Positions 1 through 10,698 are shown, counted from the first letter of the stretch. The stretch: 64,000 nucleotides of DNA from an uncultured Chloroflexia bacterium (GCA_963789725.1 CAWBLU010000001.1:709549-773548); one strand, 5' to 3'. A program made the numbers and translations. Notes: generated by a model not told the origin, from the sequence alone.

Positions 1-927
1 GCCCTGCGGGACGATGACGATGGGAATGAACTGCAGGATCTGCAGCTCCGTACGGGCGAACGTCGACAGGAAGATGCCCAGCGAAACCGCGCCCAGGCCC
101 AGGACGAGGACCAGCAGGTAGGCGAGCAGCGGGTTGCCGATGGTTCGGACGCCCAGGCCGATAGCGAAGGCCGGAATGGGACCGAGCGCCGGGATGTCGA
201 AGCGACCAAGGACGAAGGCGAGCACAATGGCCACCTGGATGGTCGCGAAGAAGCCGAAGCCGAGGCTATAGCCGAGTACGATCTCGGCCCGGCTGACCGG
301 CGTCGCCAGCAGCCGTTCGAGCGTCCCGCCGATCCGTTCTCGCAGGAAGCTGATGCCGGTCAGGATGAACACGAAGAAGTAGGCGAAGAAGCCGACGACT
401 ACCGGCGCGAGCGTGTCGAGCTGGGTCGCATCCGGCGAGCCGTAGACGGTCGCCCGTTCGAACGTGGGCAGGGCAACCCCGAGCGTGTCCGCCATGGAGC
501 CGAGCAGCGCCTTCTGGATCGCCGGGACGACGGATGCCTCGCCGGGTGGATTGAGACCGAGCGTGAGCAGCTCGAACTTGCGGTTCTGGACGCTGAAGTC
601 GGCCGGGAGGAGGACGACCAGGTCGAGCCTCTTGTCTTCGAGCATCTGGCGGGCGGTCGAGTCGTCGGCGACCGAGCGATCGAGGGCGATGCCGGGCTGG
701 CCTTCGAGCGCGCCCTGGATCTTGGAGGCGAAGGCGCCTCCGGCCGGGGTGCCCGACTCATCGACGACCGCGATGCGAGCCGTGGTCGACTGCGAGCTGC
801 TCAGGACCCAGCCGAGCAGGGCGATGATCGCAAGCGGGGCGACAAAGAGAAGGGCGAGCGAGCGGGGGTCGCGGCGGAACTGGGCGACGATGCGGCGGAA
901 GACGGCGGCCACACGGAGCGGGTTCAT
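1..927 (-). CDS. ABC-2 type transporter permease, partial (C-terminus runs off the window start)
   Basis: Minus-strand frame from ATG at 927 reads MNPLRVAAVFRRIVAQFRRDPRSLALLFVAPLAIIALLGW... with several hydrophobic helices typical of ABC-2 permeases. Its ATG (927..925) overlaps the TGA of the upstream ATPase (926..924) in an ATGA junction. It is absent from the ORF track because no stop lies inside the window. Confidence 0.7.
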   Translation of the reverse strand, partial: MNPLRVAAVFRRIVAQFRRDPRSLALLFVAPLAIIALLGWVLSSSQSTTARIAVVDESGTPAGGAFASKIQGALEGQPGIALDRSVADDSTARQMLEDKRLDLVVLLPADFSVQNRKFELLTLGLNPPGEASVVPAIQKALLGSMADTLGVALPTFERATVYGSPDATQLDTLAPVVVGFFAYFFVFILTGISFLRERIGGTLERLLATPVSRAEIVLGYSLGFGFFATIQVAIVLAFVLGRFDIPALGPIPAFAIGLGVRTIGNPLLAYLLVLVLGLGAVSLGIFLSTFARTELQILQFIPIVIVPQG

Positions 928-1748
928 CGGGTGACCTCCTTCGAGCCGGCCGCGTGGGCGGGGTCCGCGGGGTCGGCGGGGTCGGAGCCGCCCGGGGTCT
1001 GAGCGGCGAAGCTCAGGAAGGCCGTCTCCAGGTTGTCGGTGGCGGCGCGCGCTCGCAACTGTTCCGGCGTTCCCTGCGCCAGGACATGCCCGCTCCGGAT
1101 GAAGAGCAGTTCGTCGCAGCGATCAGCCTCGTCCATCACGTGACTAGAGACAACCAGCGTGGCGCCGTCGGCGGCGAGCTTGTGGAAGTGGTCCCAGAAC
1201 TGGACCCGCAGGGCCGGATCCACGCCGACCGTAGGTTCGTCGAGGAAGATGACGCTCGGGTGGTGGGCCAGCGCGCACGCCATCGAGAGTCGGCGCCGCA
1301 TCCCACCGGAGAGGTCCTGGGCGGGCGTGCCGGCCCGCTTCTCCAGCTCGACGAATTCCAGGGTCGCCTTGAGCTGGGCCTTGTCGGTCTGGCCGTAGAG
1401 CGCCGCGAAGAACGTCAGATTCTCCCAGACCGAAAGCTCGGGGTAGATGCCGTCGGCCTGGGTCATGTAGCCGATGCGCGCCAGGTTGGTGCGCGACGGC
1501 ATCGCCACGCCCATGACCTTGACGGTCCCGCTGGTCGCGGAGGCGAGTCCGGTCAGCAGCCGGATCAGGGTCGTCTTGCCCGAGCCGTTGGGCCCGAGCA
1601 GCCCGTAGATCCTTCCCGGCGGCAGGCGCATGTCGATGCCGTCGACGGCATGTATCTCCCCGAAGTCTTTGCGGAGTGCGACCGCTTCCACCGCCGGCGG
1701 TGGCGGCGTCGGCGCCATGTCGGGTGAGGGCGCGGGAGCGACGGTCAT
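924..1748 (-). CDS. ABC transporter ATP-binding protein
   Basis: Walker A GLLGPNGSGKTT, signature LSGGMRRRLSMACAL and Walker B VIFLDEPTVGVD. The start overlaps the TetR stop in an ATGA junction at 1745-1748. Confidence 0.9.
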   Translation of the reverse strand: MTVAPAPSPDMAPTPPPPAVEAVALRKDFGEIHAVDGIDMRLPPGRIYGLLGPNGSGKTTLIRLLTGLASATSGTVKVMGVAMPSRTNLARIGYMTQADGIYPELSVWENLTFFAALYGQTDKAQLKATLEFVELEKRAGTPAQDLSGGMRRRLSMACALAHHPSVIFLDEPTVGVDPALRVQFWDHFHKLAADGATLVVSSHVMDEADRCDELLFIRSGHVLAQGTPEQLRARAATDNLETAFLSFAAQTPGGSDPADPADPAHAAGSKEVTR

Positions 1749-2575
1749 CGGTTGCCTCCTTGGCTGGCTTCAGGTCGGGCGGCGCCGCGGAGAAGCAGAT
1801 CCACGTACGCCTCGACGTTGTCTATGGCGGGAGTGATGCCGATTCGGGAGAGTTCCTCGAATACGGCAGGCCCGAGGACGATGAGCAGGAAGACGGGCCC
1901 GAACAGCGCCTGGATGAGCAGTGCCGGGTCGGTCTGGCGCAGATTTCCCTTCTGGATCTGGACCCCGAACCAGGCGATCATCAGCGGCGCACCCTGGCCT
2001 ACGATCTCGGACATGACGACGCGGGCCAACTCCGGGTCCCGCGACGAGTTGGCGGCGAGGTTTCGGACGAGGTCGGCTCGGGTCCGCATGGCGTCGTAAT
2101 AGGCGCGGGCGATGGCGATCAAGCCGTCTCTGGCGCTCAGCTCAACGGACGGTTCGATCTTCCCGCGCATCTCATCCACGGGGCTGACGCGCCGGGCGAC
2201 GGCTCGCAGCAGCTCCGCGCGATCATCGAAGTGGTGGTAGAAGGCGCCCTTCGTCAGGCCCGCTTCAGCGGCGATGGCCTCGATCGAGATCTGGCCGCCC
2301 CCGGGGCGGGAGAGGAGGCGGACGGCGGCATCGATGAGGCGATCGCGGGTCGGCTCGTCTCGTGCGGTCGTGGTGTCGAGGCCATCGGCGGCCAGAGCGG
2401 CGCGGAGGCCTCGCAGCCCACCGAAGTAGTGATGAACGGTCTGGCGGGAGACGCCGGCCTCGGCAGCCACGTCCTGGACCGACAGGGCAGCGGGGTCGGC
2501 CTGGAACCGGCGGCGAGCGGCTTCCAGGATCGCGTCCCGGGTTGGCTGCGCGATTGGGCTCGACTGGTCAGACAT
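1745..2575 (-). CDS. TetR family transcriptional regulator with two tandem TetR_N-like HTH segments
   Basis: Start chosen at ATG 2575 (MSDQSSPIAQ...); the ORF-track extension to 2809 only translates the 14-bp repeat array. There are two HTH-like stretches, LSVQDVAAEAGVSRQTVHHYFGG and ISIEAIAAEAGLTKGAFYHHFDD, followed by a roughly 150 aa ligand-type domain. It is the first gene of the TetR-ABC ATPase-permease operon. Confidence 0.8.
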   Translation of the reverse strand: MSDQSSPIAQPTRDAILEAARRRFQADPAALSVQDVAAEAGVSRQTVHHYFGGLRGLRAALAADGLDTTTARDEPTRDRLIDAAVRLLSRPGGGQISIEAIAAEAGLTKGAFYHHFDDRAELLRAVARRVSPVDEMRGKIEPSVELSARDGLIAIARAYYDAMRTRADLVRNLAANSSRDPELARVVMSEIVGQGAPLMIAWFGVQIQKGNLRQTDPALLIQALFGPVFLLIVLGPAVFEELSRIGITPAIDNVEAYVDLLLRGAARPEASQGGNR

Positions 2576-2617
2576 ACGTACCAGTATGCATGTCGTGTCA
2601 AGTGCTTGTTTGGGTGG

Positions 2618-2814
2618 TCCCGACACCCGCGCCCCCGACACCCGCGCCCCGACACCCGCGCCCCGACACCCGCGCCCCGACACCCGCGCCCCGACACCCG
2701 CGCCCCGACACCCGCGCCCCGACACCCGCGCCCCGACACCCGCGCCCCGACACCCGCGCCCCGACACCCGCGCCCCGACACCCGCGCCCCGACACCCGCG
2801 CCCCGACACCCGCG
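2618..2814. repeat. Perfect tandem repeat, 14-bp unit ccccgacacccgcg x14 (first two units are 14 and 15 bp)
   Basis: Read directly from the sequence. The array is intergenic, about 40 bp upstream of the tetR ATG, and has no spacers. The tetR coding strand therefore reads (cgcgggtgtcgggg)n. Confidence 0.9.
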
Positions 2815-3069
2815 CCTTCTCAATATCACCCGGGCTGCTGCTACGCCGAGTACCGGGCCGAATGCCTGCTCAATATCAGCCCGGCGAATGCTGAGGTGCG
2901 TTGGGCCGCCCGCTCGGCCACGGCCGGTGCCTGGGCCGGCGGTTCGAGCGTGAGCAGGACAGCGTCGCCGACCTTTCTGCTCCGCGAGTGTGAAACGGCG
3001 GCTTCGCGGCTGCTTTGGATCACCCAGGATGATTCTGAGCAGGTTTGAGTTGGTGTCTGCCCGCCCTGG

Positions 3070-3858
3070 CTATGGCGCGCTCACCGCCGCGTCCACCGGC
3101 CGGCGGAGCAGCCGCAGAGATGCGGTCTGGACGGCGATGACCGCCAGCAGGCCCGCGCCGAAAGCGACGCCGAGACCCAGCTGTTCGATCGTGGAGTTGA
3201 TTACGAGGAAGAACACGATCGTGCCGAAGAGGCCCATCTGAAGCCCTCGAACGACATGGATCGCCGAGCCCGGTCCTTCGAGGTGGTGGGCAAAGACCGC
3301 CAGGACTGTGACATAAACTGGCAGCGCGGCCAGCAGTCCGCTGAGCGAGGGGCCCAGCGTTTCGGCGGCGGCGGTGATCGCCAGCACGATGCCGGTGCCG
3401 ACGATCATCCGGGCGGGGATGTCCCAGGCCGGCGCGGGGGCGATGTCAATCCCCTCGGGCGCGGGAACCGCCAGCGCCAGGCAGACGATCATCACCACGG
3501 CGACCACGGCGAACACGACCACCGCCGGCTCGGCCAGCACGGGCTGCATGGCCAGTGCCGCCGCGGCAAATGCGCCCAAACCGCAGGCCACCGACACCGG
3601 CCAGCCCGCCCGGCGCGCGACCAGTCCGTACGCCAGGGCGAAGGTGGCGTCGCCGAGCAGCCCCGCGATCGAACCCTTGGCCGAACCCGCAGCGAAAGCG
3701 TTCCCCTGGCCCAGGGCAAGGTAGAGAGCGACGGGCCCGGATGTGAGCGGCAGGGCCACGATCCAGCCCCCGACCGCGGGCCCCCAGCGTCGCGCCGCCA
3801 GGCTCACCCCACCGATGAGCAGGGGCGTAAGGCTGAGTTTGAGCAAGAGAAGGGCCAC
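3070..3858 (-). CDS. Polytopic membrane protein of unknown function, paralog A
   Basis: GTG start at 3858 chosen so the N-terminus aligns in length with paralog B (VALLLLKLSLTPLLIGGVSLAARRWGPAVGG vs MIDLFFKIGLPVVMIGIVTLAGHRYGPAVGG). About 8 hydrophobic helices. The first ~100 codons of ORF 3070..4149 are Arg-rich out-of-frame junk. Confidence 0.6.
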   Translation of the reverse strand: MALLLLKLSLTPLLIGGVSLAARRWGPAVGGWIVALPLTSGPVALYLALGQGNAFAAGSAKGSIAGLLGDATFALAYGLVARRAGWPVSVACGLGAFAAAALAMQPVLAEPAVVVFAVVAVVMIVCLALAVPAPEGIDIAPAPAWDIPARMIVGTGIVLAITAAAETLGPSLSGLLAALPVYVTVLAVFAHHLEGPGSAIHVVRGLQMGLFGTIVFFLVINSTIEQLGLGVAFGAGLLAVIAVQTASLRLLRRPVDAAVSAP

Positions 3859-3925
3859 GAACGGAAGGGTATCGGATTGCAGTGTTAGGTCGCCCGGCGC
3901 CGGACGGGCCCAGTCGCTCCAGGCG

Positions 3926-4396: not shown

Positions 4397-5220
4397 TCGG
4401 CCGCCTCGGGCAGAGCCAATTCGTCGGCTAACTGAGCCTCGACCTCGGCCGCCGGACGGCGCGCCCGGAAGGCGGACCGCAGCTCCACGAATTGCACGAC
4501 GACCACGGCGCATCCCGCCAGGGCGAACGATCGCACGACCCCCAGCGGCTCGAGTGTCGCCGCGACGACCGTCAGAAAGGCGGCGAAGCCCAGTAATCCG
4601 TGAGTCAGGCCGCGCATCACTCCGACCGTCCGGTCCGGTCCTTCCTGCGCGTGAGTGAAGAGCGCCATGACGGCGGCAATCGTTGGGATCGTGGTCAGCA
4701 TGCCGCTCAACGTCGCCCCGAGGCGTGGGCCGGCGGTTGTCACGAAGACCACCATGGCCGCGCCGGCGATCATGCGAGTTGGCAGATCGGACCTGGCGGT
4801 GGCACGGCGCGGCATCGGCGGCGCCTTCGGCAGCAGGCGGCGCGAAACCAGCAGGACGGCCATGGTGGCGACAAACGCCGGGGCCAGTCCCCAGGCCGAG
4901 ATGGGCAGCATGGCCGCCCATGTCACGGCAAACGCCGCGTAGGCCCCGGCACCTGCCACCGACCAGCTGAAACGGCGGCACATCAGGGCATAGGCAAGGC
5001 AGAAGACGCCGCATCCTGCGGCACCGCCGAGCGACGCGGCGGCGGACTTGGCGGCGAACGACGTGTTCTGCTCCAGAGCCAGGAACAGGAGGATCGGGCC
5101 GCCCTTGGCCGGGACGGCGCTGAGAATGCCGCCGACGGCCGGGCCGTAGCGGTGGCCGGCGAGCGTGACGATGCCGATCATCACGACCGGCAGTCCGATC
5201 TTGAAGAAGAGGTCGATCAT
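4393..5220 (-). CDS. Polytopic membrane protein of unknown function, paralog B
   Basis: Start ATG at 5220 (MIDLFFKIGLPVVMIGIV...). Clearly paralogous to the 3070..3858 product, sharing GPAVGG, ALFTHAQEGP/AVFAHHLEGP and VMRGLTHGL/VVRGLQMGL blocks. The ORF-track extension to 5598 is just the translated 61-bp repeat. Confidence 0.65.
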   Translation of the reverse strand: MIDLFFKIGLPVVMIGIVTLAGHRYGPAVGGILSAVPAKGGPILLFLALEQNTSFAAKSAAASLGGAAGCGVFCLAYALMCRRFSWSVAGAGAYAAFAVTWAAMLPISAWGLAPAFVATMAVLLVSRRLLPKAPPMPRRATARSDLPTRMIAGAAMVVFVTTAGPRLGATLSGMLTTIPTIAAVMALFTHAQEGPDRTVGVMRGLTHGLLGFAAFLTVVAATLEPLGVVRSFALAGCAVVVVQFVELRSAFRARRPAAEVEAQLADELALPEAAE

Positions 5221-5229
5221 GTGCGGCCC

Positions 5230-5657
5230 CACGGTAACCGCCGGAGCGTTCGGCCGCCCAGTCGTCGGCTTCGCCTGGTCCGGAGGGCCCCACGGTAACC
5301 GCCGGAGCGTTCGGCCGCCCAGTCGTCGGCTTCGCCTGGTCCGGAGGGCCCCACGGTAACCGCCGGAGCGTTCGGCCGCCCAGTCGTCGGCTTCGCCTGG
5401 TCCGGAGGGCCCCACGGTAACCGCCGGAGCGTTCGGCCGCCCAGTCGTCGGCTTCGCCTGGTCCGGAGGGCCCCACGGTAACCGCCGGAGCGTTCGGCCG
5501 CCCAGTCGTCGGCTTCGCCTGGTCCGGAGGGCCCCACGGTAACCGCCGGAGCGTTCGGCCGCCCAGTCGTCGGCTTCGCCTGGTCCGGAGAGCCCCACGG
5601 TAACCGCCGGAGCGTTCGGCCGCCCAGTCGTCGGCTTCGCCTGGTCCGGAGAGCCCC
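5230..5657. repeat. Perfect tandem repeat, 61-bp unit x7 (cacggtaaccgccggagcgttcggccgcccagtcgtcggcttcgcctggtccggagggccc)
   Basis: Period of 61 confirmed at 5230, 5291, 5352, 5413, 5474, 5535 and 5596. The last two copies carry gagagcc in place of gagggcc. The array lies between the hydrogenase large-subunit stop (5696) and the paralog B start (5220). Since 61 is not a multiple of 3, it is non-coding. Confidence 0.9.
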
Positions 5658-5695
5658 AGGCTGGCCGGTTGGACGATATCCGGCTCCGCGATCGG

Positions 5696-7009
5696 TCAGT
5701 CGCGCTCGACTTCCAGTTTGAGGAAGTGCGTGGCGCAGCTGATGCAGGGGTCGTAGGAGCGGATCAGCTGCTCCAAGCGGATAGTCGCCTCGGCATGGGG
5801 CAGGGTCAGGACCTGAGGAGCGAACTCCGCCAGGTCCGCCTCGATCATGCCCTGGTTCTGGCCGGTGGGGGCAATGATCTGGGCGGCTTCGATCTTGCCG
5901 TTGTCGTCGAGGTCGTAGTGGTGCCAGCAGATGCCGCGCGGCGCCTCGGTGCCCCAGCCGGTGTCGCCGCCGCGCGGGGTCCAGGGCGTGAAGGGTCTGG
6001 CCGGCTCTTCGTACGAGTTGACGATGTCCAGCGCCGAAGCGGAGGCGTGGATCAGCTCAACCGATCGTGCCGCTATCGCCCAGTACGGGTTTCGCGCGAT
6101 CTGCCTGGCCAGGCCGCTCGCGTGGAGAGCCTCGGCCGCCAGGGGGTGGAGCTGGTCGGCGTTGAGAGTTACACGCGCCGACGGACCCAGCATGTATAGC
6201 TTGCCGTCGAGAGTGCGAGCGTGGAGGGCGTTCGTGCCTTCGTGGTGCTCTTCGTGGAAGGCCTCGCGCCAGCCCCACAGCGGCACGTCGATGCCGTCGG
6301 TGGAGACGATCCGGCCCTCGTTCAGGCCGTACTCGATCGGATGCTTGATGGCCACGTAGTGCGGGTCGCGCTCGAACTTGGGCGCCTTGAACGCGGCCAC
6401 GAGCTTGAGCGTCGCGTGAGAGAGCGCCAGCGCCTCCGTCAGGGGCGCCCGAAGGGCCTGGATCTGGTCCCGGCTCGGGGTCCTGGAAAACCCGCCGACG
6501 CGCATCGAGACCGGGTGGATCGCCCGGCCTCCGATGAGCTTCATGATCTCGTTGCCGGTCCGCTTGAGCCTCAGCGCCTGCTCGACGACGGGCTTGTGGT
6601 CGCGCGCCATGGCGATCGCGCTCTCGTAGCCCAGGAAGTCCGGGGCGTGGAGCATGTAGACGTGGAGGGCGTGGCTCTCGATCCATTCGCCCCAATAGAA
6701 GAGCTTGCGCAGGGCTCGAACCTGGGGGTCGATCTCGACCTCGAAAAGGTGCTCGAAGGCCATTGCGGAGCTCATCTGGTAGGCCACCGGACAGATGCCG
6801 CAAATTCGAGCCGTGATGTCGACTACTTCGTTGGGCGTCCTGCCGACGACGAGCTTCTCGAAGTAGCGCGGTGCCTCGAAGATGGAGAGGCTCGCCTCGC
6901 GGACTTCGCCGTCGGTTATGCGCAGCTTTAGCGTGCCCTCGCCCTCGACGCGCGCGATCCCGACAACCTCGAAGTTGCGCTCACCCGTCGTCGTTCCTGC
7001 CTTTGGCAT
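5696..7009 (-). CDS. [NiFe]-hydrogenase large (catalytic) subunit, group 3-like, 437 aa
   Basis: N-terminal RVEGEG...RICGICPVAY (RxCGxC), EAPRG, and C-terminal DPCISCATH followed by the cleavable tail FLKLEVERD. The size and motifs fit soluble group 3 enzymes. No small-subunit gene lies upstream. Confidence 0.85.
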   Translation of the reverse strand: MPKAGTTTGERNFEVVGIARVEGEGTLKLRITDGEVREASLSIFEAPRYFEKLVVGRTPNEVVDITARICGICPVAYQMSSAMAFEHLFEVEIDPQVRALRKLFYWGEWIESHALHVYMLHAPDFLGYESAIAMARDHKPVVEQALRLKRTGNEIMKLIGGRAIHPVSMRVGGFSRTPSRDQIQALRAPLTEALALSHATLKLVAAFKAPKFERDPHYVAIKHPIEYGLNEGRIVSTDGIDVPLWGWREAFHEEHHEGTNALHARTLDGKLYMLGPSARVTLNADQLHPLAAEALHASGLARQIARNPYWAIAARSVELIHASASALDIVNSYEEPARPFTPWTPRGGDTGWGTEAPRGICWHHYDLDDNGKIEAAQIIAPTGQNQGMIEADLAEFAPQVLTLPHAEATIRLEQLIRSYDPCISCATHFLKLEVERD

Positions 7010-9381: not shown

Positions 9382-10698
9382 TCAGCGGAACTGGCTCCAC
9401 GGGTCGTAGTCCACCTCGAGCGGCTCCTGCGGCGGCCGTTCCGCCTCGGGGACGTGCTCGAGGTTGACGCGGATCCGGTACCAGAGCTTGTAGCGGCCGC
9501 GCATGCCGTCGACCAGAACGTCTAGCGGGTCGAGGTAGCCGGCGACGGAGCCGTGGCGCTCCTTCCAGCTTTCGAAGCCGGCGAGCGCCTCCTCCTTGGT
9601 CGCCGCCCGCGCGATCTCGATGAGTGGCTTTGTCGAGATGCGCCGGCCGGTCGGGGAGCGGCCGGACTCGGCCCCACCGCCCGGCCCGGCCGCATCGGTC
9701 TTGCGTGCCCGCGACGGCATGACCCTGGGCGGCTCGCCCGGCGCCTTGGCGTAGTGCGGCGGCCACGGCGCGTCGCCCATGCCTTCCTTCTCCTGCCGAG
9801 CGGACAACTCCAGCAACTGGGCCAGCGAGCCAGCGGCCTCGTCGATTCCGGCGCCCGGATCGCCGACCCGCGCATACCGCGCCGGAACCGTTGCCAGCGT
9901 GAAATCACCCAGCTCGCATGAAGGCAACTCGTCCCAGGTCACCGGCGCCGAGACGCGCGCGTCCGGCACCGGCCGGACCGAGTAGGCCGAAGCCACGGTT
10001 CGGTCCTTGGCGTTCTGGTTGTAGTCGATGAAGACGCCGTGGCGCTCTTCCTTCCACCACTTGCTGGAAGCGATCGTCGGGGCGCGGCGCTCGATCTCGC
10101 GAGCCAGGGCGACGGCGGCGCGCCGGACCTGATCGAACGTCCAGCGCGGTTCGATACGAACGTTGATATGGATCCCGCGCGAGCCCGAGGTCTTGGGCCA
10201 GCCGACGAGCGAGTGGTCGGCCAGGACTTCGTGGGCCACCAGGGCCACGCGGCGGATGTCGTCCCAGGGCACGCCCGGCATCGGATCCAGGTCGACCCGC
10301 AGCTCGTCGGGGTGGTCGAGGTCGTCGGCGCGGATGGCGTGCGGGTTCAGGTCGATGCAACCGAGGTTCGCGACCCAGGCCAGTCCGGCGGCGTCGTCGA
10401 GGACGATCTCGTCGGCTGTTCGTCCGGACGGGAAGGACAGCTCCACGGTCCGCAGCCACTCCGGCCTGGACTCCGGGGCGCGTTTCTGGAAGAAGTACTC
10501 ACCGTCGGCGCCGTTCACGAAGCGCTTCATCGCCATCGGCCGGCGTCCGGCGCCGCGCAGGGCGCCATCGGCCACGGCCATGTAGTACGAGACGAGGTCG
10601 CGCTTGGTGTAGCCCGGTCCTGCGAAGAAGATCTTGTCCGGATTCGTGATCGAGACCTGCCGGCCCGCGACCTCTACGACTTCGCTTCGCGTTGGCAT
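9382..10698 (-). CDS. LigD-type NHEJ polymerase/primase domain protein with C-terminal extension
   Basis: GYTKRDLVSYY, WPKTSGSRGIHINV and FIDYNQN blocks typical of the LigD polymerase domain (archaeo-eukaryotic primase fold), about 300 aa. An extra ~130 aa C-terminal region of unknown function follows. Confidence 0.85.
   Translation of the reverse strand: MPTRSEVVEVAGRQVSITNPDKIFFAGPGYTKRDLVSYYMAVADGALRGAGRRPMAMKRFVNGADGEYFFQKRAPESRPEWLRTVELSFPSGRTADEIVLDDAAGLAWVANLGCIDLNPHAIRADDLDHPDELRVDLDPMPGVPWDDIRRVALVAHEVLADHSLVGWPKTSGSRGIHINVRIEPRWTFDQVRRAAVALAREIERRAPTIASSKWWKEERHGVFIDYNQNAKDRTVASAYSVRPVPDARVSAPVTWDELPSCELGDFTLATVPARYARVGDPGAGIDEAAGSLAQLLELSARQEKEGMGDAPWPPHYAKAPGEPPRVMPSRARKTDAAGPGGGAESGRSPTGRRISTKPLIEIARAATKEEALAGFESWKERHGSVAGYLDPLDVLVDGMRGRYKLWYRIRVNLEHVPEAERPPQEPLEVDYDPWSQFR

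Follow-up and report, generated by a model that had tools for sequence, protein, structure and literature searches.

The window, by which we mean the whole stretch of 64,000 nucleotides that was analysed, carries close to its start a gene for a TetR/AcrR-family regulator (tetR), followed by the genes of an ABC transporter and preceded, in the spacer that separates tetR from the next gene upstream, by a tandem array of a 14-bp unit. The preliminary description of this DNA had reported 14 copies of a 14-bp repeat just upstream of a tetR-ABC operon, about 40 bp from the tetR start codon, and TRF, an exact pattern count and Pfam searches confirmed this arrangement. The features of the locus, in window coordinates, are as follows.

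1 to 927, minus strand: gene for an ABC-2 type permease, partial, running off the window start (open frame; orthologous calls match ABC2_membrane families)
924 to 1748, minus strand: gene for the ABC transporter ATPase, abcA (Pfam ABC_tran, E = 1.3e-31; sequence)
1745 to 2575, minus strand: tetR, encoding a 276-aa TetR/AcrR-family regulator (Pfam scan, homologues)
2565 to 2602, minus strand: conserved 38-bp block, putative tetR promoter and operator (near-invariant in 93 orthologous loci)
2571 to 2594, minus strand: 24-bp imperfect palindrome GACATGCATAC TG GTACGTATGTC, in which the tetR ATG is embedded (pairing counted from the sequence)
2602 to 2618, minus strand: non-conserved 17-nt linker accacccaaacaagcac from the array to the block (no column conservation upstream of -27 in 93 loci)
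2619 to 2816, minus strand: minisatellite, 14-bp unit x 14.1 (TRF, exact pattern count, repeat finding, G4Hunter)
2817 to 3069, no strand: species-specific distal spacer with two direct repeats (repeat finding; no homology, no promoter or terminator match)
3070 to 3882, minus strand: memA, a co-oriented membrane-protein gene upstream of tetR, with no Pfam family (tblastn synteny, gene calls)
about 4441 to 5220, minus strand: memB, a paralogue of memA, with no Pfam family (tblastn synteny)
5225 to 5658: second perfect tandem array, 61 bp x 7.1, filling the hydrogenase-memB spacer (TRF, 99% matches, score 854)

The tetR product matched the Pfam family TetR_N in two HTH stretches (E = 4e-24) and TetR_C_11 once. 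The two HTH stretches are consecutive (about residues 12-58 and 80-126) and precede TetR_C_11, and this architecture is kept in the Limnocylindrales orthologues. The abcA gene overlaps tetR through an ATGA, is translationally coupled to it and possesses a canonical Shine-Dalgarno sequence (AGGAGG) 6 nt upstream of its ATG. On the other side of tetR, memA and memB, which are approximately 40% identical, sit between tetR and a gene for a NiFe-hydrogenase large subunit (5696-7009). Tblastn searches and gene calls revealed that the order NiFe-hydrogenase, memB, memA, tetR, ABC ATPase, ABC-2 permease is kept across the lineage. The second array of the window ends 4 nt upstream of the memB ATG (5220, minus strand), and all of its reading frames stay open throughout; in relatives that keep memB, the hydrogenase-memB spacer measures 50-160 bp.

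A total of 264 TetR homologues were found at E <= 1e-20. Among the matches listed (120 of the 264), identity to TetR was 75-89%, save for one identical sequence, and the named homologues came from MAGs of Candidatus Limnocylindrales (Chloroflexota) of peat, fen and soil. The genome that carries the array is a Limnocylindrales (Chloroflexota) MAG. Approximately 115 related loci were fetched, comprising 31 loci from GTDB genomes, 80 from JGI metagenomes and four 21-kb loci with gene calls from long-read MAGs. Several of the long contigs among these loci belong to the Nanopore-only Microflora Danica MAG set (PMC12313526).

According to TRF, the array occupies positions 2619-2816 with a period of 14, 14.1 copies, 99% matches and a score of 387; the preliminary description had put it in the right place, its coordinates (2618-2814) differing from these by 1-2 nt. 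The sequence of the unit is CCCGACACCCGCGC when the plus strand is read and GCGCGGGTGTCGGG when the tetR strand is read. An exact pattern search found 14 copies of CCCGACACCCGCGC, and the maximum in 100 dinucleotide shuffles, with 2 mismatches allowed, was 9 matches. The array thus consists of head-to-tail units in the range of 10-100 bp at a number far above chance, as is characteristic of a tandem repeat or minisatellite. Only a single additional C, at 2633 behind the unit nearest to tetR, disturbs the series; it may be real or a homopolymer sequencing error. Between the tetR ATG (2575-2573, minus strand) and the array there is a gap of 43 nt (2576-2618), in agreement with the distance reported before. 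On the upstream side, 17 bp separate the array from the conserved block; the array lies outside both this block and the ORF and, with the putative promoter in the block, would occupy none of the positions expected of a phase-variable simple sequence repeat (in an ORF, between -35 and -10, or in a 5'UTR).

Database searches indicated that the unit is peculiar to this locus. The 28-mer formed by two units had no match in 185,579 GTDB species genomes and none in the JGI metagenomes, and the unit was absent from all of the 114 related loci that had been fetched at that point. No Rfam family matched the array region, in which there was only a chance snoRNA match (E = 0.13). The array is not CRISPR-like, as its units are contiguous with no spacers between them. 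A literature search found no papers on tandem repeats in Limnocylindria or Chloroflexota.

From tetR outwards, the 494 bp of the window's memA-tetR spacer comprise 43 bp that take in the upstream portion of the conserved block, then the 198-bp array and finally a distal part of 253 bp. Compact relatives have spacers of 41 bp (L118) or about 44-90 bp (several further loci), and their memA stop codon precedes TTGACA by at most a few tens of bp (15 bp in L118). Among the four long-read loci of 21 kb, the spacer measured 41, 472, 739 (as called) and 985 bp; arrays explain much of its inflation in these loci, and it is the longest spacer in two of the four, L115 and L116. Further signs of structural turnover were observed in L002 (2778-2909), where a memA fragment (residues 23-66) directly abuts TTGACA, and in L031 (2864-2987), where a 62-bp x 2 duplication extends across the tetR start (-5 to +118). 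The distal part of the window's spacer (2817-3069) had no homologue in any of the 114 related loci and contained no convincing ORF. Two direct repeats, 2814-2842 and 2864-2892, show 79% identity over 29 nt and have in common the exact core CTCAATATCA at 2819 and 2869. These 'ctcaatatca' repeats had been suggested as operator- or promoter-associated elements, a suggestion that found no backing, as they have no counterpart in the 114 related loci and no promoter-like match.

To compare conservation, the related loci were anchored on the tetR ATG. The results revealed a 38-bp block, cTTGACAcGaCATgCATACTgGTACGyATGtCtGaCca, which extends from -27 to +10 relative to the ATG and is near-invariant in 93 orthologous loci, even where TetR is only 64-70% identical (range 64-89%), for example in L118 at 9975-10012. 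This block is the only conserved non-coding DNA in the 93 loci, and conservation stops sharply at TTGACA. The palindrome lies within the block; its consensus, GACATGCATAC-TG-GTACGCATGTC, covers positions -19 to +4, with 10 of 12 positions paired. It was found once in the 64 kb and never in shuffled sequences, and no second operator exists distal to the array, the palindrome being single and proximal in the window. An operator of the TetR family is a conserved palindrome of 15-30 bp; the array is a direct repeat that does not match the palindrome at 2571-2594, and it is the palindrome, not the array, that fits this definition. We infer from its sequence that the palindrome is an autoregulatory operator. 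The palindrome is flanked by conserved TTGACA/TGAC motifs, with which the extra HTH of TetR might be connected.

The tetR gene has no Shine-Dalgarno sequence, and no alternative in-frame start codon is present in the sequence before the first HTH. The periods of the arrays upstream of the ATG (14, 20 and 26) are not multiples of three, whereas past the ATG the repeats show periods of 9, 15 or 18, as would be anticipated in a coding region, which supports this ATG as the true start. In the block, CATACT (2583-2588, -13 to -8) is the only hexamer with an A at position 2 and a T at position 6, and it is the only candidate there for a sigma-70-compatible -10 element. Taking CATACT as the -10 element would put the transcription start at or beside the ATG, and the tetR mRNA is probably leaderless or near-leaderless and autoregulated. 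Other readings of the block were also considered. TTGACA (-26 to -21) lies too close to CATACT to be the -35 element of a leaderless promoter, and with a -10 element 15-18 nt downstream of TTGACA the start would fall inside the ORF; ECF-like and sigma-54-like readings, judged by eye, showed the same spacing failure.

A consensus scan of positions 2300-3300 found neither a sigma-70 promoter nor a terminator. With no terminator detected downstream of memA, transcripts of this gene may read through into the array. The memA-tetR spacers of approximately 41-90 bp in the compact relatives suggest that the promoter and the operator lie between the array and tetR, and the driver of tetR in these relatives must sit in the block or in memA itself. 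Because the conserved block is situated between the array and the start codon, the transcript of tetR itself probably excludes the array. All of the conserved cis-sequence being contained in the 38-bp block, the tetR promoter would likewise be expected in the 43-bp gap; the preliminary description had named a transcription start in this gap, combined with invariant copy number across isolates, as a result that would tell against its reading of the array as a switch, and a promoter at the position of the block would supply the first half of this pair.

The tetR-coding strand had been described as G-quadruplex (G4)-prone, and G4 prediction bore this out. On the tetR strand, the unit GCGCGGGTGTCGGG(G) has a G3 tract followed by one loop (TGTC) and a G4 tract followed by another (CGC); the alternation of G3 and G4 tracts is as reported, while the loops are 3-4 nt long and not 1-4 nt. 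The mean G4Hunter score over the 198-bp array was 1.70 on the tetR-coding (minus) strand, which contains 28 G-tracts with loops of 3-4 nt and on which canonical G4 motifs start, in overlapping fashion, at 37 positions. The whole 64 kb (68% GC) contains no more than 7 canonical G4 clusters, among which the array is by far the longest. The array has at least four tracts of at least three Gs, loops of at most 7 nt and a G4Hunter score above approximately 1.5, the features by which G4 sequences are recognized, and its G4 potential is genuine at the level of the sequence. As single-stranded DNA, the G-rich strand has a weak hairpin alternative, its centroid being nearly unstructured (z = -2.3). For the G-rich RNA, ViennaRNA RNAfold with quadruplex energies switched on preferred a long repeat-on-repeat G-U/G-C hairpin (-145 kcal/mol), and a G4 is not the predicted ground state of the array RNA.

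Unrelated arrays were found in the tetR-upstream slot in at least four other species (periods 15, 20, 24 and 18), and most tetR orthologues have no upstream array at all. The arrays of the relatives, with positions counted from the tetR ATG, are as follows.

L001, -193 to -70: 15 bp x 8.3 plus degenerate higher-order repeats, 93% match
L011, -206 to -35: 20 bp x 8.6, 100% match
L018, -168 to -28: 24 bp x 5.9, 94% match
L023, -213 to -84: 18 bp x 7.3, 90% match
L007, -161 to -112: 26 bp x 1.9, 100% match

No canonical G4 motif was present on either strand of the arrays of L001, L011, L018 and L023, and their G4Hunter scores on the tetR strand were -1.01, -1.12, -0.01 and -0.38, respectively. 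Strand bias differs among the arrays in this slot, and their G/C skew is opposite to that of the window's array or absent. Because the arrays in the same slot elsewhere lack G4 motifs and show an opposite skew or none, G4 potential is not a conserved property of the locus. It is not kept at the orthologous position, where most orthologues have no array, and on these comparisons the G4 propensity is a by-product of the unit of this particular array rather than a conserved feature.

Length differences were detected in related repeats. L032 and L033 are near-identical assemblies of essentially one species, obtained from different samples. In the memA-tetR spacer they are set apart by a clean indel of one 55-bp repeat unit, which falls in a degenerate higher-order array, and the perfect 15-mer array next to it has the same copy number in both. 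Three single-base indels that resemble Nanopore errors also distinguish these two assemblies. In the coding sequence, TetR orthologues from different samples that are otherwise identical vary in their N-terminal linker, where an in-frame 15-bp repeat encoding [G/E]TATR has 3, 6, 8, 8 and 9 copies. This coding VNTR is located in L050 at about 2370-2496 (+73 to +199 from the ATG), the proteins being P0037, P0127, P0038, P0133 and P0126, and different linker repeats (ATEPA x5, APHEP) occur in other TetR orthologues. The 55-bp indel and the copy-number differences in the coding repeat indicate that repeat-mediated length change is active at this locus in the lineage.

Arrays are not confined to the spacer upstream of tetR. 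Intergenic tandem arrays are common in L115-L117, where many spacers contain them and the units measure 13-81 bp, and the array-bearing spacers of the 21-kb long-read loci include perm/MFS, MFS/L25, LigD/Lig, Lig/hyd, hyd/memB, AIM24/YceI and others. The rarity of arrays in short-read contigs of the same locus suggests that short-read MAGs under-represent them. A short-read Logan contig breaks inside the 15-mer array of the L001 species; none of the JGI contigs that end just upstream of tetR ends in an array, the sole such case being the Logan contig L034.

We compared the frequency of arrays in the tetR-upstream slot with that in other spacers. Arrays were present upstream of tetR in 4 of 9 long-read orthologues and in 7 of 61 other spacers (Fisher p = 0.029), and strong arrays, with at least four copies, in 3 of 9 and 1 of 61, respectively (p = 0.006), in a small, phylogenetically non-independent sample whose background comes from only four neighbouring 21-kb loci. 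The window was left out of this test because it had been ascertained through its array. In the four 21-kb loci, the memA-tetR spacer was the most array-rich one. These results are only suggestive of a slot that is modestly array-prone, and the enrichment hints at something beyond neutral drift.

Several explanations of the array can be weighed against this evidence. The preliminary description had proposed that the tetR coding strand could form stacked G-quadruplexes, as DNA and, were the promoter beyond the array, as 5'UTR RNA, and that variation in repeat number is a plausible phase or level switch for the efflux operon. With a G4Hunter score of 1.70 over 198 bp and 28 G-tracts, the array does far exceed every other G4-prone stretch of the 64 kb in size, the ssDNA hairpin that would compete with a G4 is weak, read-through transcription with a G-rich non-template strand is possible in view of the lack of a terminator between memA and the array, and related tracts in the lineage do change length. 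We nevertheless regard such a switch as quite unlikely, because all of the conserved cis-sequence sits between the array and tetR and the compact orthologues leave no room for a distal promoter. In addition, the arrays of four other species have no G4 motif and a different strand bias, most orthologues are arrayless, RNAfold with G4 energies gives a hairpin and not a G4 for the RNA, and the palindrome occurs only once, with no distal operator. The 15-mer array of the L001 species was also equal in copy number in the single comparable pair of near-identical assemblies. That the units are iteron-like, repeated sites for a DNA-binding protein, such as extra TetR sites or sites of a nucleoid protein, is scarcely credible. 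There are 14 identical sites at a regular spacing of 14 bp, and GACAC/GTGTC in the unit weakly resembles the operator ends GACA/TGTC, but no match to the operator or its half-site was found in the array at <=2 mismatches, save for a trivial CCGACAC on the opposite strand. Moreover, the unit was found nowhere else in GTDB, the JGI metagenomes or 114 loci, and the arrays of other species use unrelated units although their TetR proteins are 70-85% identical. Assemblers are not known to create perfect 14-mer repeats between unique flanks, and it is very improbable that the array, or at least its copy number and perfect identity, arose in the assembly or polishing of a long-read metagenome. Such an artefact would agree with the fact that the window's TetR is known from a single contig, with the Nanopore-only origin of the related array-bearing long contigs (PMC12313526), a kind to which the window's own contig might belong, as guessed from its length, and with the extra C at 2633, which resembles a homopolymer error; however, comparable arrays exist in several independent assemblies, and the L001 15-mer array recurs with an identical copy number in the assembly of a second sample and has a short-read Logan contig ending inside it.

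The remaining alternative concerns the slot and not the unit, namely that unrelated arrays are repeatedly born beside the conserved operator through selection or through a mechanism. The arrays could uncouple tetR-ABC from read-through out of memA, in the role of an evolvable spacer or insulator, or a TetR-bound operator could stall replication forks and thereby provoke slippage. In five species, unrelated arrays have proximal ends that are 2-58 bp from TTGACA on its upstream side (-28 to -84 relative to the ATG), arrays are more frequent in the slot than in neighbouring spacers of the long-read loci, and the memA-tetR spacer, the largest in L115 and L116, measures 494 bp here compared with 41 bp in L118. 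Against this stand the small and phylogenetically non-independent sample, with its background from four 21-kb loci, the occurrence of arrays in many other spacers and in coding linkers, and the compact, arrayless spacers (41-90 bp) of half of the long-read orthologues; the arrays also share no pattern in the length and composition of their units or in how far they lie from the block. We therefore consider a hot spot of this kind unlikely. A combined scenario, in which a Limnocylindrales hot spot upstream of the operator, as a kept insulator or through repressor-triggered slippage, is joined here by a G4 or R-loop roadblock on the non-template strand, appears decidedly unlikely.

Known repeat systems provide a further basis for comparison. 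The MIRU-VNTR loci of Mycobacterium tuberculosis are intergenic VNTRs or minisatellites of a high-GC bacterium. Like these loci, which are often near gene starts and change length by whole units, the array consists of head-to-tail units of 10-100 bp in an intergenic position of a GC-rich genome, and whole-unit length change was seen in related arrays of this lineage. Unlike MIRU-VNTR, which represent a dispersed repeat family, the unit is confined to a single locus in a single species and its copies are perfectly identical, and the organism is an uncultured Chloroflexota MAG. G4s are known from the region upstream of pilE in Neisseria gonorrhoeae and have been reported in GC-rich Actinobacteria and Deinococcus; promoter-proximal G4s of the pilE type are single, conserved four-tract motifs with experimental support. 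At the sequence level, the array resembles them in its G3/G4 tracts, its short loops and its location upstream of a gene, whereas it is a 28-tract repeat array whose G4 potential is a sequence prediction and is not conserved at orthologous positions.

Phase-variable systems were also compared. The TAAA tract of nadA in Neisseria meningitidis is reported to be phase-variable, to lie upstream of the core promoter and to be flanked by NadR operators (PMC2791445). The nadA gene and the present locus share a repeat tract that is upstream of, and not within, the core promoter of a gene under the control of a ligand-responsive repressor. For nadA, repressor operators or promoter elements are reported to be required at either side of the tract, so that their spacing matters, whereas at the tetR locus the operator is found once only, proximal to the array, the distal spacer is unconserved with no conserved element in it, and the unit is 14 bp rather than 4 bp. 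In hmw1A of Haemophilus influenzae, an (ATCTTTC)n tract is reported to be transcribed in the 5'UTR, where it forms a long hairpin that is processed by RNase III (PMC12721329). The array RNA, if it is transcribed by memA read-through, is likewise predicted to fold as a long repeat-based hairpin; the hmw1A repeats, however, are situated between the promoter and the start codon, a place that is taken here by the conserved block.

Thus, with a probability of roughly 60%, we interpret the array as a young, species-specific intergenic minisatellite of the VNTR type that expanded in the unconstrained memA-tetR spacer, upstream of a probably leaderless TetR-operated promoter. Slipped-strand replication or unequal recombination would have created the array in the unconstrained part of this spacer. 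The 38-bp block would function as both the tetR promoter and the TetR operator, giving rise to a leaderless or near-leaderless autoregulated mRNA, and the array would remain outside the core promoter and outside the transcript of tetR itself. Under this interpretation of a minisatellite beside a conserved control element, a change in copy number would not turn the operon on or off. Points that weigh against it are the spacing of TTGACA, which leaves the assignment of the promoter incomplete, the chance that read-through reaches the array, the enrichment of arrays in the slot and a G4 propensity that stands out in the window. The effect of the array is probably neutral or at most modulatory, and any such modulation might arise from altered upstream spacing or from memA read-through that is hindered by a G4, an R-loop or a hairpin.

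The array appears to be an ordinary, though unusually clean, bacterial minisatellite, and its value is mostly descriptive. Long-read MAGs of this abundant uncultured Chloroflexota lineage of soil and peat contain many intergenic arrays that are missed or broken in short-read assemblies, and such arrays can inflate compact spacers right beside conserved control elements. The array is a candidate marker for strain typing, and the conserved operator block offers a well-delimited test case for the influence of an upstream array or G4 on a TetR-controlled, probably leaderless promoter. If the slot upstream of tetR were truly a hot spot, the birth of repeats would appear to be linked to repressors or driven by selection, which would be of broader interest for genome evolution.
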